A DNA stretch of 36,100 nucleotides from Candidatus Woesearchaeota archaeon (lineage in GTDB: Archaea; Nanobdellota; Nanobdellia; SCGC-AAA011-G17; GW2011-AR17), in the NCBI GenBank assembly GCA_964358335.1, contig CAYHOW010000001.1, positions 1-36,100 of the forward strand, read 5' to 3'. Position 1 is the first letter of the stretch; every line of letters starts with the position of its first letter. The translations under genes and the position numbers were made by a program. This document shows, in pieces, positions 3,245-29,443 of this stretch. Under the pieces are notes generated by a model. It saw only the letters and a program-made list of their open reading frames with translations, did no database searches and was not told the origin of the DNA.

Positions 3245-4535
3245 TTTGACCAAAAAGTATTGTGAAGCCTTCCAATTGGAGCAACGCCCCTGCATTCGTT
3301 AGCTTGAATGCAATGGAAGTTCTTGGCTCATCGATGAGAATGCGCTCTCATCTTCCCAAGCGTTACTTCCCGCACTTCCTGCGGTAGTATGTATTAAGGC
3401 AAACTGCTTAATAAGCATTGCGGACATTATATCACGGTCCATTTCTATTCCACATTTATTGCACTTATGGACTCTTATAGCCAATGATTTCTCTACCCTG
3501 TTTCCACATATGCAATATTGCGATGTCCCATTTGGATCAACTCTTACTAGTTTGCCACCAGTTTCTTCCACTTTGTAGGCAAGCAGTTGCAGGAATTTGC
3601 CCCAACCGGCATCGCTTATGGACTTTGATAAGTATCTATGATGCAGCATATTATTGATCGATAGCTTTTCTATGGCAATGATTGAATATGAATCTGCCAA
3701 TTTCCGTGATTCCTTGTGTATGAAATCTTTTCTTCGGTTTAATATTTTTTCATGGAGTCTAGCGATTTTAATCCTTGATTTCTGCCTATTTCTCCCCCCT
3801 TTCTTCTTTTTTGAATGGCTCCTCTGCAAATGAGCTAAATTCTTCTCTGATTTCCTTAGCCATCGAGGGTTGTCAACGAAATGGCCTTCGCTGTCCGCAT
3901 AGAAATGAAGCAAGCCTAAGTCAAGGCCGATAATCTTGTCTTTTTTCTCTAATTTTTTTTGTATTTCTTGTTCAACAGAAAAATAAGCATACCATTTATC
4001 GGTGCTCATCTTCTTCAAAGTCATTGTTTTGATTCTGCCTTTAATATTCCTATGCTTTACTATTTCAATATGGCCTATTTTTGAGATATGCAACTTATCG
4101 TCCACCAAAAAACCTTTTTGTGGAAAAGTTATTGAATGATAATGGTTTTTGCCTTTGAACCTTGGATATCCCGGGTTTTCTTTTCTTTTGACCCTACGAA
4201 AAAAATGTTCAAATGCAATACTCACTCTTTTGCCTGCATTCTGAAGCACTTGAGAATGAATATTTTTGAGCTCGGGATATTCCTCTTTCAAAACTAAAAG
4301 ATGTTTATTTAGGCCAAAATAATTAACATTGACGCAGTTTTGTTCATATGATTTAATCTTAAACGATAATTGCTCATTATAAACGAAGCGTACGAGTTCT
4401 AACTGGTTTAACAAATTTGCCTTCTGTTCTTTTGTAGGGTATAAGCGAAATTGGTAGGTTTTTAACATGCAATATAATCGGTAAATCGTGTTTATAAGGG
4501 TTGCGCGCACACTTGTCGGGTGTCGAGTGGTCTTA
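3245..4535 (-). mobile_element. IS1341-like (tnpB-only) IS200/IS605-family element; ends not determined
   Basis: There is a tnpB but no Y1 tnpA. The element body is visibly AT-richer than both flanks. A GC-rich imperfect palindrome (4510-4529) lies about 45 nt upstream of the tnpB ATG. The boundaries are guesses. Confidence 0.4.
3299..4468 (-). CDS. tnpB: TnpB (IS200/IS605-family OrfB, RuvC-like RNA-guided nuclease family)
   Basis: The N-terminus MLKTYQFRLYPTKEQ is the classic TnpB start. RuvC-like triad candidates are IGLDLGL (D), IAIEKL (E) and MDRDIMSA (D). Zn finger CICG...CNKCG. The GTG at 4510 in the track is probably upstream of the true start. Confidence 0.9.
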   Translation of the reverse strand: MLKTYQFRLYPTKEQKANLLNQLELVRFVYNEQLSFKIKSYEQNCVNVNYFGLNKHLLVLKEEYPELKNIHSQVLQNAGKRVSIAFEHFFRRVKRKENPGYPRFKGKNHYHSITFPQKGFLVDDKLHISKIGHIEIVKHRNIKGRIKTMTLKKMSTDKWYAYFSVEQEIQKKLEKKDKIIGLDLGLLHFYADSEGHFVDNPRWLRKSEKNLAHLQRSHSKKKKGGRNRQKSRIKIARLHEKILNRRKDFIHKESRKLADSYSIIAIEKLSINNMLHHRYLSKSISDAGWGKFLQLLAYKVEETGGKLVRVDPNGTSQYCICGNRVEKSLAIRVHKCNKCGIEMDRDIMSAMLIKQFALIHTTAGSAGSNAWEDESAFSSMSQELPLHSS

Positions 4536-4735
4536 AGAATATACTTATTTTATAGAAATCACAGAAGATTTATGACATAATCGGAAACAATAATTGAAAA
4601 CAGCAAAATACAATCTATTTTTTCGAAAAGAAAGTCCTAATTTCTGAAAGCAACAAATTAACCACGCGACAATAAGGATGTCCATTACCACATGGTTTAA
4701 TCTTGGATGTTGTTAGGATATAGGTCAATTGGCAT

Positions 4736-4748
4736 AAAATATATAAAT
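4736..4748 (+). promoter_or_regulatory. TATA-box candidate for the pilus ATPase operon
   Basis: aaaatatataaat lies about 40 nt upstream of ATG 4786. A second AT-rich box lies at 4765-4772. Confidence 0.35.
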
Positions 4749-4785
4749 CGATGGAGAAATAGATAATATATACAAAAGTGGTAAC

Positions 4786-7700
4786 ATGGCTGATAAAAAG
4801 ACGGTGACGCCTCAAGGCTACGAGATAGTCAGGGAAGGCGCTGAAGAGGTCATACGCTTGAACTATGAGAGCGTCCCGTATTCTCCTACGATTGAAGACA
4901 ACCCCTATGTCATGATGGACGTCATCGACAAGCTTGTCGAGAACCCCTCAATCGGCCGGATAACCTTCATGCAGCGCAGGCATTACAATTACGAGTTCGA
5001 GCAGACCCAGATGCTCATGCAGGTAGCCAACCTCTACAGCTACATGGTGAAGAGGAAGAAGGCGCTCAGCCCTGCCGCCATGGGCACGACGTTCGAGAAT
5101 CCCGGAATCGTTGCCGAAAGGCACAGCACCGTGAGGTACATCGTGTTCGAGCTCCTTAGGTCTGACCCGCTGGGCGCCTATGTCGAGCTCAAGCGCCTCA
5201 TCCGGCTTGAGACAATCAAGCAGAGGAAGACCGAGGACTTGAGGATGAAGGAGTCCAGGCAGGTCTTCATGGACCTTCTGCAGGACATATTCCAGCAGCT
5301 TGAAAAGACAAAGCTTGTGCAGATGGCGATGCCCTACCTTGCCGGCTACACCTTGGGAGACAGGACAGTCTACAAGCTCTTCTTCAGGCCCACCATCACT
5401 CCGGATTTCCTCTTCACGAAGCTCATGGCCCGGCTGCCCTTGGACGGAGAAGAGATGGAGATATATTCCCTTGACAAGAACACCGACGTGACAATATTCA
5501 GCACCACGGACGACATCAAGTACCTGTACCATCTCAACCCGCCGGAGTTCAAGCTCTCGGAAGACAAGTACGCTTTGGTTGACCTTGCCAAGTCTGTCCT
5601 TGCAGAGCACCAGCCAAAGGAAGAGGCTTTCCTTGACCCTGCAAAGATGCGCACCACGTTCTTCAACATCGGCTCTGACCTCCTGAGAGAACTTGCCGAG
5701 CACCAAAACCTTGACCTTACGCCTAAAGAAGTAGTCGAGCTGACCGAGATACTAATCAGGCACACAATAGGGTTCGGATTCATAGAGCTTTTGCTTAAGG
5801 ATGAGAGGATACAGGACGTATCAATAAATGCGCCGAACGGCGACGTCCCAATATTCGTATTGCACGGCACCTATGATAACTGCGTAACCAACATAATACC
5901 TTCGCGAAGCGACGCAGAAAGCTGGGCAACCAAGTTCAGGCTGCTGTCAGGAAGGCCCTTGGATGAAGCTAATCCCATCCTGGACACCGAGCTCCAATTG
6001 CCGCAGGCCAGGGCAAGGGTATCTATGATTACAAAGCCGTTGAACCCGTACGGCCTCGCATACTCGTTCAGGAGGCACAGGGACAAGCCTTGGACCTTGG
6101 CCCTGTTCGCCAAGCAGAAGATGATAAATACCACGGCCGCCGGCCTTTTGAGCTTCCTTATCGACGGCTCGAGAACGATGCTTGTCGCAGGAACAAGGTC
6201 GAGCGGAAAAACATCCTTGTTGGGGGCCTGCCTTGTCGAGATAATGAGGAAGTACCGCATTCTTACTATAGAGGACAGCGTCACAGGCGATGCCGAGCTG
6301 ATTATTAAAGATAAGTCTGGCTTCAGTAGGCTTGATTTTGATGGTCTCTTTGAGAAAAATAAGGCCAAATCAAAAAAGTCAGGCAGCAGAGATGTCATCT
6401 TCAATCCTGATTTTAATGTGTTCTGCATAGATAAAAAAGGCAAAATAAATTTAAAGCCTGCAACCAGGATAATAAGGCATTTTGTCGATAAGCCTATCTA
6501 TGAAGTGACGACTGCGACAGGGAGGGTAATCAAGGCAACTTCTGACCATTCTTTATTTAAGCTTGGCGAAGATAAGATGCTCGAAGAAGTCAAAACATCC
6601 GAGCTGAAAGAAAACGATTTCTTGGCGGTGCCCAGATGCATGACCCTGAATAATAAGGAAAGAAAACATTTTGAAATTAATTTTAATGATATAGGAAGCA
6701 ATATTTTTGTCAAAGGAAAAAATTTTAATAAAATCCTTAATGATAAGAAGATATTATTTATGAAGGCAGGAAGATTCTTAGGCTATGCCAAAGTCACTCT
6801 TCTCTCTATGATTAGACATGGCAGGCTGCCTCTTGCCATCGCAAAAAAGATGGGCTTAGTGAAGCATACCGATATGTTTAAATCCGGGCATAATTCGTTA
6901 TTCATCCCTTCAGAAGTCATATTGGATAATGTCTTCCTTGAGTTCTTGGGCTTGTGGCTGGCCGACGGCTGCTATGATAAGAACAGCATAATTGTCTCTG
7001 TAAGCTCTGAAGAAGAAAGGGATGTTGTCAGAAAAGTCGCTGAAAGATTTAACCTGAAGACTGCTATGCACAGCGATAAGTTCTCCTTGATGATACATTC
7101 CAAATCTTTTAAGTTCCTATTAAAAGATGTCATGGGCCTCAAGGGCAATGCCTATACCAAAAGAATCCCTGAATGGATATTCAATCTTTCAAATAAGCAG
7201 ATATCATCATTCTTAAGAGGGCTGTTTAGCGGAGACGGGTGCGCTTCTGACAGGGAAATTGCGATATCTTTAGCTTCCCCCAAGCTCCTATCCGACATAC
7301 AATCTATTTTATTGAATTTCGGGATTATCTTCAGGATAAACTTGCTAAGGGAACATAAATTCTTGCCTAATGACAGAACCAAAGACGGGAGGATTAGCTC
7401 ATTGAAATCCTTAAGATTATTTAAGCAGATAGGATTCCTGCAGCAAAAAAAGAACAATAATTTGGCTAAGCTGCTGAATAAGGTTTCAGTCAAAGACACT
7501 ACTGATGTTGTCCCATTGCCATTTACGACAAGGACAAAAATAGCTGGAGCCTTGAGCAATCTAGAATTCAACAAAAATGATTATCTCAATAGGGGCAACA
7601 ATGTTGGCAGGGAAAAACTAAAGAGAATTGCGTCGCTCTTAAAGGTTAAATCATCTGATAAGAAATTAGTTTCTTACATCGCCCAATTGTCTGAATCAGA

Positions 7701-8619
7701 CATATTCTGGGATAGGATAGTCAAGGTAAGGAGGGCGGACAAACCGCAATATGTCTATGATATCTCTGTGCCTGAAGATGAGAATTTCATTGCAAATAAT
7801 ATCATGGCTCATAACACTATAGAGCTCCCATCCGAAGCGCTGAGAGAGCTAGGATATGACATCCAGCCTCTAAAAGTACGCTCGGCATTGGTCGAGTCGG
7901 GAACAGAGCTTTCAGCTGCCGAAGGCATAAGGACATCCTTAAGGCTTGGAGATTCCGCATTGATAGTCGGAGAAGTCAGGAGCAAGGAAGCCATCGCGCT
8001 GTATGAGGCAATGAGGATTGGCGCGCTGGCAAACGTCGTCGCGGGAACCATCCACGGAGATTCGCCTTACGGCGTCTTCGATAGGGTTGTAAATGATCTT
8101 GGCGTGCCGAGGACTTCGTTCAAGGCAACTGACCTGATAATCGTGGCAAACCCCCTCAAGAGCCCGGACGGCCTGCACAAGTGGAGAAGGGTCACGCAGA
8201 TAACTGAAGTGAGAAAGGAATGGGAAGATGACCCTCTTACTGAAGGAGGTTTCATCGACCTGATGAAGTACAATGCCCACACTGACCAGCTCGAGCTTTC
8301 GCCAGAACTCGTCAATGGCGACTCCGAAGTAATCAAGTCTATCGGCTCCAACGTGAAGGAGTGGGCAGGAAACTGGGACGCGATATGGGACAACATCAAC
8401 CTGAGGGCGGAAATAAAGAAAAAGACAATCGAGTATTCCGACAGGACGAAGAACGACAAGATGCTTGAGGCCCCTTTCGTGATAAGGTCCAACGACCAGT
8501 TCCATAGGATTTCTAATTCTGTCAGGGAAGATATAGGCGCACTGGACTCCAAGCGCATACTATTTGAGTGGGAAGAGTGGTTGAAAAGAGTTATAAGGAA
8601 AGGAGAGCTACCTAAATAG
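4786..8619 (+). CDS. type II/IV secretion-family ATPase (archaeal FlaI/PilB-like pilus assembly ATPase), intein-containing precursor
   Basis: Walker A is AGTRSSGKTS. The Asp box ILTIED|TIELPSE is reconstituted when residues encoded by 6277-7815 are removed. Walker B is ALIVGEVRSKEA and the His box is AGTIHGDS. The extein is 764 aa. Confidence 0.9.
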   Translation: MADKKTVTPQGYEIVREGAEEVIRLNYESVPYSPTIEDNPYVMMDVIDKLVENPSIGRITFMQRRHYNYEFEQTQMLMQVANLYSYMVKRKKALSPAAMGTTFENPGIVAERHSTVRYIVFELLRSDPLGAYVELKRLIRLETIKQRKTEDLRMKESRQVFMDLLQDIFQQLEKTKLVQMAMPYLAGYTLGDRTVYKLFFRPTITPDFLFTKLMARLPLDGEEMEIYSLDKNTDVTIFSTTDDIKYLYHLNPPEFKLSEDKYALVDLAKSVLAEHQPKEEAFLDPAKMRTTFFNIGSDLLRELAEHQNLDLTPKEVVELTEILIRHTIGFGFIELLLKDERIQDVSINAPNGDVPIFVLHGTYDNCVTNIIPSRSDAESWATKFRLLSGRPLDEANPILDTELQLPQARARVSMITKPLNPYGLAYSFRRHRDKPWTLALFAKQKMINTTAAGLLSFLIDGSRTMLVAGTRSSGKTSLLGACLVEIMRKYRILTIEDSVTGDAELIIKDKSGFSRLDFDGLFEKNKAKSKKSGSRDVIFNPDFNVFCIDKKGKINLKPATRIIRHFVDKPIYEVTTATGRVIKATSDHSLFKLGEDKMLEEVKTSELKENDFLAVPRCMTLNNKERKHFEINFNDIGSNIFVKGKNFNKILNDKKILFMKAGRFLGYAKVTLLSMIRHGRLPLAIAKKMGLVKHTDMFKSGHNSLFIPSEVILDNVFLEFLGLWLADGCYDKNSIIVSVSSEEERDVVRKVAERFNLKTAMHSDKFSLMIHSKSFKFLLKDVMGLKGNAYTKRIPEWIFNLSNKQISSFLRGLFSGDGCASDREIAISLASPKLLSDIQSILLNFGIIFRINLLREHKFLPNDRTKDGRISSLKSLRLFKQIGFLQQKKNNNLAKLLNKVSVKDTTDVVPLPFTTRTKIAGALSNLEFNKNDYLNRGNNVGREKLKRIASLLKVKSSDKKLVSYIAQLSESDIFWDRIVKVRRADKPQYVYDISVPEDENFIANNIMAHNTIELPSEALRELGYDIQPLKVRSALVESGTELSAAEGIRTSLRLGDSALIVGEVRSKEAIALYEAMRIGALANVVAGTIHGDSPYGVFDRVVNDLGVPRTSFKATDLIIVANPLKSPDGLHKWRRVTQITEVRKEWEDDPLTEGGFIDLMKYNAHTDQLELSPELVNGDSEVIKSIGSNVKEWAGNWDAIWDNINLRAEIKKKTIEYSDRTKNDKMLEAPFVIRSNDQFHRISNSVREDIGALDSKRILFEWEEWLKRVIRKGELPK
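6277..7815 (+). mobile_element. 513-aa intein with LAGLIDADG homing-endonuclease domain, inserted in the ATPase Asp box
   Basis: Block A is SVTGDAELII (Ser1) and block B is ATSDH (TxxH). The two LAGLIDADG motifs are LGLWLADGC and LRGLFSGDGC. Blocks F/G are VYDISVPEDENFIANNIMAHN followed by Thr+1. The insert is visibly AT-richer than the exteins. Confidence 0.85.
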
Positions 8620-28498: not shown

Positions 28499-28987
28499 TT
28501 AGTTGACAATAATAGTACCGTATCCCATTCTCATCCCACATGCAAATTCAAATGCCCCCCTTTGATTTGGAGTAAATTTTATACTATCTGAAGGATTTTT
28601 AGAATAAACACTTACTCCTAATTCCCGAATATTAAATGAACGGAAGCATCCTCGGACACTGCTATCCAAAGTGATTTCTACAGGCCTGCCTGCTTCTACA
28701 GTTATAGTATTTGGGTAATAATTATTTTTAAAACTTAGAGTGATCTTTTGAACGCTATCTTCAGTCAAACCTCTTTCAGAGATTGCATTTCCAGTTAGAC
28801 CTCTTCCCGAGACTAAAAAATAAACTACGATTATTGCCAATATGCCTATAACCCAAAATATTTTTTTTCTGGATTTTTCTTCTTTTGCATTATTTAATGG
28901 AAGATTATGTTTAGCTGAATTATGCATTGCCAAGGCTTCCTGACTTTGAAATTCCCTATTGCACTCTTCGCATCTCATTGTTTCCAT
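28499..28987 (-). CDS. C2H2 zinc-finger - TM - cupredoxin-like domain protein
   Basis: I prefer ATG 28987 to the TTG at 29020. The zinc finger is CEECNREFQSQEALAMHNSAKH, followed by the TM segment IFWVIGILAIIVVYFLV. A C-terminal beta-rich domain ends in FEFACGMRMGYGTIIVN (Cupredoxin_1-like). Confidence 0.65.
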   Translation of the reverse strand: METMRCEECNREFQSQEALAMHNSAKHNLPLNNAKEEKSRKKIFWVIGILAIIVVYFLVSGRGLTGNAISERGLTEDSVQKITLSFKNNYYPNTITVEAGRPVEITLDSSVRGCFRSFNIRELGVSVYSKNPSDSIKFTPNQRGAFEFACGMRMGYGTIIVN

Positions 28988-29050
28988 ATTTTTTACCTGT
29001 ACACCCACTAATTTCAGCAAATATACATTTGTTTTTCAGGCAGCTATATT

Positions 29051-29443
29051 TTATTTAACAGTCAATTTGCCTTTCATTTGCATATGCCCAGTCCCGCACA
29101 TGTTTGCGCAATACCAAATGAATTCTCCAGCTTTATCTGCAGTAAACTCTAAACTTTCATCTTCTCTTAAATTCAATTCTGGAATCCTGATCCCGTGAAG
29201 AACATCAGTATTCTCAATATTTATCCTTACCTTGTCCCCTTTATTCACAGTTATCTCGTCTGGAGTATAACCGAACCTAAATGCCTTAACGTTAAACTCC
29301 TTAACATCACCTGTTTGGGCCACTGTATTCTGTACAACATTTCCTGTTGGCGAGAAAGAGCCAAATATCTTTATTCCAGCAAAAGCAACCACTACGATGG
29401 CTACCATAACTAAACTCCATTTAATCGTTTTTCCTTTTTCCAT
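29051..29443 (-). CDS. membrane-anchored cupredoxin with a complete CuA-type motif (cytochrome oxidase subunit II-like domain)
   Basis: The CuA ligand pattern is LHGIRIPE ... WYCANMCGTGHMQM (H...Cx3Cx3Hx2M). It has a single N-terminal TM segment and a GGAGGTG RBS. Confidence 0.75.
   Translation of the reverse strand: MEKGKTIKWSLVMVAIVVVAFAGIKIFGSFSPTGNVVQNTVAQTGDVKEFNVKAFRFGYTPDEITVNKGDKVRINIENTDVLHGIRIPELNLREDESLEFTADKAGEFIWYCANMCGTGHMQMKGKLTVK

Follow-up and report, generated by a model that had tools for sequence, protein, structure and literature searches.

A well-preserved, probably splice-competent LAGLIDADG intein in the Asp box of a DPANN type IV filament/secretion ATPase

In a 36,100-nt stretch of contig CAYHOW010000001.1 from a Candidatus Woesearchaeota archaeon (assembly GCA_964358335.1; this whole stretch is hereafter called the window), we identified a single uninterrupted open reading frame (ORF) in which an ATPase of the type IV filament/secretion kind is divided by an in-frame intein of 513 codons, inserted within the conserved Asp box of the enzyme. 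We consider it likely that the element is a canonical intein of class 1 that harbours a double-motif LAGLIDADG homing endonuclease, would be spliced out of its DPANN host ATPase and would circulate by homing. Comparison with related alleles further suggests that the intein is well preserved, that it can probably splice and that it probably continues to home. Inteins of this kind are common and have already been catalogued.

An intein inserted between the two halves of the Asp box

The insert corresponds to amino acids 498-1010 of the precursor (nt 6277-7815), which reads ...VAGTRSSGKTSLLGACLVEIMRKYRILTIED|SVTGDAELI...NFIANNIMAHN|TIELPSEALREL... across its two junctions. Deletion of these 513 codons in silico joins ...RILTIED to TIELPSE... 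and yields a 764-aa ATPase of the T2SSE/GspE/CpaF/FlaI type. Exactly this excision had been proposed in the first-pass annotation of the window, and it is confirmed to the codon by the translation of the ORF and by intein-free orthologues; the masses given there (~58 and ~85 kDa) are close to those we predict for the intein (58.4 kDa) and the spliced product (87.2 kDa). Searches with the spliced sequence retrieved intein-free orthologues of exactly 764 aa at 92-93% identity (P0001 and P0002), together with approximately 20 proteins among the best 120 matches in which an insert of ~510 aa contains intein domains. At the site in question the intein-free proteins of our alignment (A1) read ...IED-TIELP..., and 13 of 15 aligned intein-bearing proteins have their insert exactly at the Asp-box site, beginning with Ser1 and closing with ...AHN|T. 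Nucleotide alignments (blastn) of the intein-free contigs L002 and L003 to the window extend up to position 6277 and resume at 7814. Alignment of the exteins to intein-free homologues, which had been suggested as a check, therefore confirms the insertion point, which is exact at both the protein and the DNA level.

Excision also restores the continuity of the host domain, in that the precursor gives two split Pfam T2SSE matches (profile positions 62-178 and 189-275) in addition to Intein_splicing and LAGLIDADG_3, and the spliced sequence gives a single T2SSE match (63-275, 63.6 bits). Among proteins of known structure, those closest to the spliced sequence are A. fulgidus GspE (2oap, 2e-24), CpaF (8rkd, 4e-20) and FlaI (4ii7, 6e-12), and in the alignment to A. 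fulgidus GspE the IEDTiEL of the spliced host stands opposite IEDTrEi. Walker A, Asp box, Walker B and His box are all retained in the order characteristic of the GspE/PilB/CpaF/FlaI/VirB11 superfamily, and the intein lies between Asp497 and the Thr of the Asp box (IEDT.EL), i.e. between Walker A and Walker B. The T2SSE match, the motifs and the homologue alignments are thus all in agreement with the earlier proposal of an insertion in the Asp box of a pilus/secretion (FlaI/GspE-type) ATPase.

FlaI itself was rejected as the identity of the host, which scored 100.2 bits where the NCBIfam equivalog NF058587 requires 550. The 764-aa extein sequence moreover possesses an extra N-terminal region of ~300 aa, and no archaellin genes were found near the ATPase in the neighbourhood annotation. 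On these grounds we assign the host to the type IV pilus (T4P)/secretion-type ATPases, as a member of a DPANN-specific subfamily of 750-775 aa from Woesearchaeota/Nanoarchaeota-type archaea. Since Pfam and NCBIfam scans of the neighbouring membrane proteins (three upstream and one of 734 aa downstream) gave no match, the suggested role in pilus assembly or in secretion derives from homology of the ATPase.

Table 1. Features of the intein-bearing ATPase gene and its immediate neighbours (positions within the window).
Feature	Position (nt)	Strand	Details
Three tandem paralogous membrane proteins, ~180-190 aa	431-2113		Upstream of ATPase
TnpB-only insertion sequence (IS) element, IS200/IS605 type, ~1.5 kb	3262-4769		TnpB ORF 3299-4510, minus strand
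Host gene precursor, 1277 aa, 145.6 kDa	4786-8619	+	Single uninterrupted ORF; one intein
N-extein, 497 aa	4786-6276	+	Walker A AGTRSSGKTS, 6187-6216; RILTIED (first half of Asp box), 6256-6276
Intein, 513 aa, 58.4 kDa, isoelectric point 9.8	6277-7815	+	Pfam, NCBIfam, PDB sequence search, AlphaFold2, Foldseek
Block A, SVTGDAELI	6277-6303	+	Ser1 = N-terminal nucleophile; TIGR01445 intein_Nterm, 35.6 bits
Block B, GRVIKATSDHSLF	6520-6558	+	T88 and H91 of the TxxH motif (TSDH, aa 88-91, 6538-6549)
LAGLIDADG homing-endonuclease domain, intein aa ~216-420	6922-7536	+	Pfam LAGLIDADG_3
LAGLIDADG motif 1, LGLWLADGC	6946-6972	+	D230
Conserved Lys295, in NAYTKRIPEW	7147-7176	+	
LAGLIDADG motif 2, LRGLFSGDGC	7213-7242	+	D320
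Blocks F and G, YVYDISVPEDENFIANNIMAHN	7750-7815	+	Block-F Asp495, penultimate His512, terminal Asn513; TIGR01443 intein_Cterm, 29.2 bits
C-extein, 267 aa and stop	7816-8619	+	Thr+1, 7816-7818; TIELPSE = second half of Asp box
C-extein motifs	within 7816-8619	+	Walker B ALIVGEVRS, 7957-7983; His box AGTIHGD, 8041-8061
Polytopic membrane protein, 734 aa	8638-10842		Immediately downstream of ATPase

Architecture and predicted fold of the intein

The intein comprises a split Hint splicing domain, a linker/DNA-recognition region, a LAGLIDADG endonuclease with two motifs and, after the endonuclease, a helical segment. Pfam Intein_splicing (PF14890) matches residues 43-513 as a split domain (E 5e-30, 104.7 bits against a cutoff of 35.8) and LAGLIDADG_3 (PF14528) is matched at E 8e-16. 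Both NCBIfam models of intein termini exceed their cutoffs, and further long partial NCBIfam matches correspond to the intein portions of many intein-containing archaeal proteins. Taken together, these family signatures identify the insert as an intein at a level far beyond chance.

In a PDB sequence search (phmmer), the best relative of the intein was PI-PkoII (1.4e-19). An AlphaFold2 model generated from a 41-sequence alignment (A2) had a predicted local distance difference test (pLDDT) score of 93.1 and a predicted template-modelling (pTM) score of 0.92, and a Foldseek search with this model also placed PI-PkoII first (2cw7; E 7.5e-30, TM-scores 0.73/0.70), followed by TliVMA (7qss) and PI-PfuI (1dq3). 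The modelled Hint part superposes on mini-inteins with a root-mean-square deviation of ~1.9-2.5 Å over ~122 columns, consistent with a Hint fold. Similarly, for the modelled endonuclease part Foldseek gave matches to the corresponding domains of PI-PkoII and PI-PfuI as well as to the free-standing enzymes I-DmoI and I-Tsp061I; these matches, along with the secondary structure of the model, point to the pseudo-dimeric alpha-beta-beta-alpha-beta-beta-alpha fold of LAGLIDADG enzymes. All the residues of a class-1 intein, namely Ser1, the TxxH motif, the block-F Asp, the penultimate His, the terminal Asn and Thr+1, were found, and a class-2 (KlbA-type) assignment, which entails Ala1 and Cys+1, was rejected in view of Ser1 and Thr+1. 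No further inteins were seen elsewhere in the window.

Conservation and selection

We distinguish the Asp-box site IED|T (site a) from a second site that directly follows Walker B in this ATPase (site b). Across 35 distinct site-a inteins, ranging from 501 to 522 aa in length and including no mini-inteins, S1, T88, H91, D230, G231, K295, D320, G321, D495, H512 and N513 are retained without exception. T88 and H91 are also invariant in the 41 sequences of A2, as is Thr+1 (T1011 of the precursor) in A1. The class-1 residues noted in the first-pass annotation (Ser1, TSDH, penultimate His, Asn, Thr+1) are accordingly conserved across the site, and its observation that both LAGLIDADG motifs keep their acidic residues extends to every allele (D230 and D320, 35/35). 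Mean pairwise identity across the site-a alleles is higher in the endonuclease domain (0.54) than in Hint-N (0.47).

The window allele (W) was also compared with L001, the locus encoding its closest intein-bearing relative, P0003. Ratios of nonsynonymous to synonymous substitution rates (dN/dS), which are approximate and noisy at a synonymous divergence (dS) above 1, were 0.039 for the N-extein, 0.025 for the C-extein and 0.025 for the endonuclease domain, compared with 0.105 for Hint-N, 0.108 for Hint-C and 0.143 for the linker. Given such low extein values in two intein carriers, in which the insert separates Walker A from Walker B, the intein would have to be removed, and the host ATPase is predicted to be functional in intein-bearing lineages. 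The extein-level dN/dS of the endonuclease domain indicates that the endonuclease too is selected for, and would hence be in use if the element is selfish.

Distribution among related ATPases

The site-a intein is present in 35 of 188 exteins, a fraction that should not be equated with prevalence because the query included the intein and thereby enriched the locus sample for carriers. Fitch parsimony on a neighbour-joining tree, a crude tree that renders the count approximate, requires at least 30 gains or losses. The presence of the intein can differ even between near-identical hosts, as in L001 (intein-bearing) and L002 (intein-free), whose exteins share 96.7% identity. Within the four-member clade of the window, informative sites pair L001 with L002 and W with L003, and only W and L001 carry the intein. 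Intein and extein similarities are loosely correlated (Spearman 0.42) and include incongruent pairs, e.g. P0019 (extein identity 0.72, intein 0.41) and P0065 (0.64 and 0.56). This patchy distribution, together with the kept endonuclease and the absence of mini-inteins, fits ongoing homing.

Several of the loci, among them L009, L011, L025 and L026, bear the record label ‘uncultured Methanosarcinales archaeon’ despite encoding an ATPase of Woesearchaeota/Nanoarchaeota type. These labels probably reflect mis-assigned taxonomy of metagenome-assembled genomes.

Base composition and age

From the AT-richness of the insert, the first-pass annotation had suggested that acquisition was recent. The compositional observation stands: GC content is 38.5% in the intein compared with 53.0% and 50.9% in the exteins, and GC at third codon positions (GC3) is 0.45 compared with 0.73 and 0.61, with a likewise low GC3 of 0.468 in the L001 intein. 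The offset is due partly to amino-acid composition (Lys 11.7% in the intein vs 6.3% in the exteins, Asn 7.2% vs 3.8%, Phe 6.8% vs 3.7%) and partly to GC3. A recent acquisition is not supported, and we rejected AT-richness as a clock: the offset is family-wide, with the intein AT-richer than its own exteins in 18/18 site-a and 12/12 site-b hosts; the GC content of the intein rises with that of its host (r = 0.93, slope 0.64), the window intein lying on the regression line (0.385 observed, 0.395 predicted); and dS between the window and L001 is as high in the intein (1.29) as in the exteins (1.18 and 1.63). Because intein and extein dS are equal in this sense, the element would be at least as old as the split between W and L001, or else the two alleles were gained separately from donors that had diverged just as far. 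It is plausible that the intein came horizontally from a lineage of lower GC content and has been only partly ameliorated.

Relation to known inteins

An intein in a pilus-assembly ATPase had initially been regarded as occupying an unusual host gene, a view that the comparison with catalogued and newly identified inteins does not support. Table 3 of the survey by Novikova et al. 2016 (PMC4760082) records, for archaeal ATPases, 21 inteins in the VirB11 type (COG0630) and five in the CpaF type (COG4962), the KlbA inteins are a classic further example, and the site described here is occupied in ~35 orthologues as well as in many shorter T2SSE ATPases. The inteins in that table share with ours the host superfamily (P-loop T2SS/T4P ATPases of archaea); the survey predates most genomes of DPANN archaea, the group from which the window derives. 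Literature searches returned no match for an intein combined with the Asp box, and nothing on this intein in connection with DPANN or Woesearchaeota.

An exhaustive HMMER search with the intein identified 104 cluster representatives at E<=1e-30, and 33 of the 144 listed matches examined (P0166-P0309) exhibit the junction IED|SV.GD...HN|T.E(L/I). Nine such matches were scanned against Pfam and all nine proved to be T2SSE ATPases of various sizes. The two matches with an organism name are from Nanohaloarchaea. The same Asp-box junction occurs in shorter T2SSE ATPases (P0174-P0213, exteins of ~480-560 aa), Nanohaloarchaea again being represented, and proteins of this kind are annotated by the Joint Genome Institute (JGI) as ‘VirB11/archaellum biosynthesis ATPase/intein/homing endonuclease’. 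Within P0174-P0213 we also observed several proteins of 1400-2140 aa with 3-7 intein-like stretches, suggestive of multi-intein ATPases.

At site b, just downstream of Walker B (GEVRS|S...LHN|T/S), the same ATPase hosts a second intein, which resembles that of site a in its length of ~500 aa, Ser1, Thr/Ser+1 and LAGLIDADG endonuclease. Its identity to the window intein is only 26%, its LAGLIDADG motif (YYLSEG) has Glu as the acidic residue, and it is absent from the window. Ten loci are occupied at site b only (L021-L023, L025-L027, L030-L032 and L035), the site-b intein is also listed for P0035 and P0071, and both sites are occupied in L028, L036 and P0166-P0168, giving genes of ~1780 aa. The nearest relatives outside the ATPases (P0141-P0158) are inteins of myo-inositol-1-phosphate synthase (GGN|SVTGD...HN|TDF) in metagenomic proteins of DPANN/Altiarchaeales type. 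These share with the window intein 27-32% identity over 100% of its length, the SVTGD start, Thr+1 and the invariant LAGLIDADG residues, and differ in host gene and motif and in being ~45 aa shorter.

Among solved structures, PI-PkoII (the Thermococcus kodakarensis Pol-2 intein), PI-PfuI and TliVMA are, like the window intein, archaeal and of class-1 type, and share its architecture of Hint domain, DNA-recognition/linker region, double LAGLIDADG endonuclease and extra helical domain. Their identity to the window intein is only ~17-21%, and they reside in other hosts (DNA polymerase, ribonucleotide reductase and V-ATPase), with a different site sequence and presumably a different DNA target. 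The host of the KlbA inteins (Methanocaldococcus jannaschii MJ0781) belongs to the VirB11/TrbB-like ATPase group. The sequence match between KlbA (2jmz) and the window intein is weak (E 0.058), and the M. jannaschii KlbA intein is a 168-aa mini-intein lacking an endonuclease, in contrast to the 513 aa and nested endonuclease described here. The sites differ as well, in that the N-extein of the 2jmz construct, from which the exact KlbA site was not placed, ends in ...DG| and that of the window in ...IED|. On record from an archaeal protein since 2000, the KlbA inteins combine Ala1 with Cys+1 and follow a three-step class-2 pathway (PMC2807308).

Proposed splicing and homing, and alternative explanations

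Under the reading that we favour, a 145.6-kDa precursor would be translated, and T88 and H91 would assist Ser1 in an N-O acyl shift. Attack of Thr+1 on the resulting ester would generate a branched intermediate, to be resolved by cyclisation of Asn513 with the assistance of His512 and the block-F Asp495, and a final O-N shift would produce an 87-kDa ATPase with a restored Asp box and a free, basic intein of 58 kDa. The endonuclease of the free intein would then cut intein-less alleles across the junction ...ATAGAGGAC|AC(A/T)ATAGAG..., and repair would copy the intein in. Such homing would keep the element circulating wherever intein-bearing and intein-less alleles coexist in populations.

Several points weigh against this reading. 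Splicing, DNA cleavage and the cleavage target are all deduced from sequence; the dN/dS values, the parsimony count and the carrier fraction are subject to the noise, crude tree and enriched sampling described above; and a search for co-conversion tracts beside the junction, in which W and L001 were compared with L002 and L003 by 90-nt windows and informative sites, counted 7, 9 and 7 sites per grouping within +/-150 nt, i.e. no clear signal in these four alleles. Moreover, since dS between the window and L001 is similar in intein and exteins, vertical descent with precise losses would fit the small clade of the window as well as repeated homing. The similar dS, the missing co-conversion signal and the close tracking of host GC by intein GC, which suggests long residence, would also fit an intein that still splices but whose endonuclease no longer drives homing, the element being inherited vertically and the endonuclease kept for structure or for a benefit to the host. 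We nevertheless consider this unlikely. It predicts decay or deletion of the endonuclease, whereas the domain has a dN/dS equal to that of the C-extein, retains both Asp residues and Lys295 in all alleles and has given rise to no mini-inteins; the very patchy distribution, with its at least 30 changes for 35 carriers, and the incongruent intein and extein similarities also argue against it.

Other explanations concern splicing itself. Because the intein interrupts a catalytic motif that lies between the two Walker motifs, the unspliced protein must be inactive, and the element might be partly domesticated as a conditional, environment-sensitive splicing switch that controls pilus-ATPase activity. 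Conditional splicing is known for other ATPase inteins, such as the RadA example described in PMC4513877, and this protein has a further intein family at its Walker B site. Against this, the sequence indicates no sensor, the Ser1/Thr+1 junctions lack a redox-sensitive Cys pair, the intein is dispensable in that close relatives do without it, and insertion into conserved motifs is a general rule for selfish inteins; a switch therefore appears improbable. Finally, we attach almost no credence to a non-splicing insert, whether a lineage-specific domain or a pseudogene with a dead intein, as every splice-junction residue is present and invariant, strong purifying selection acts on the exteins of intein carriers, the ORF is intact, orthologues precisely lack the insert, and no second, compensating T2SSE ATPase was found in the window.

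The gene should be annotated as a single intein-containing T2SS/T4P-type ATPase, and not as a ‘LAGLIDADG endonuclease’ or a novel 1277-aa fusion. The known inteins are extended by a well-preserved Ser1/Thr+1, endonuclease-bearing family with at least 35 natural alleles at one site and close relatives that are intein-free, a naturally occurring set in which the homing cycle of uncultured DPANN archaea could conveniently be studied. The family may also supply splicing domains free of Cys and LAGLIDADG enzymes of new specificity. General knowledge of inteins and of pilus ATPases is unchanged by the finding. A more speculative notion, which we judge unlikely, is that DPANN type-IV-filament ATPases constitute an intein hot spot, as might be suggested by two unrelated endonuclease-bearing inteins, extein-level purifying selection and a lack of decayed or mini forms. 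This might imply unusually sustained homing, so frequent DNA exchange among tiny episymbiotic archaea, or alternatively a domesticated or regulatory role of inteins in pilus assembly.

Genomic surroundings

The remaining genes of the window are those of an ordinary archaeal chromosome, including a wyosine-formation radical-SAM enzyme, a 2-oxoacid:ferredoxin oxidoreductase, S-adenosylhomocysteine (AdoHcy) hydrolase, ThiF, JAB proteins and metallophosphoesterases. The membrane-protein genes flanking the ATPase are syntenic in L001-L003, and their products are candidate filament or platform components of a DPANN system. The TnpB of the neighbouring IS element (NCBIfam guided_TnpB, 282 bits; Pfam OrfB_IS605, Cas12f1-like_TNB and HTH_OrfB_IS605) belongs to an AT-rich insertion (GC 0.37, GC3 0.38) that is absent from the syntenic loci L001 and L002, where a divergent intergenic spacer of ~54 bp stands in its place. 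As the element ends 16 nt upstream of the ATPase start codon, it may have displaced the operon promoter. The most AT-rich island of the window consists of two adjacent cupredoxin-like genes on the minus strand (28499-29443), with a GC content of 0.35-0.38 and a GC3 of 0.25-0.35 compared with ~0.65 in neighbouring genes, and these were probably acquired horizontally.

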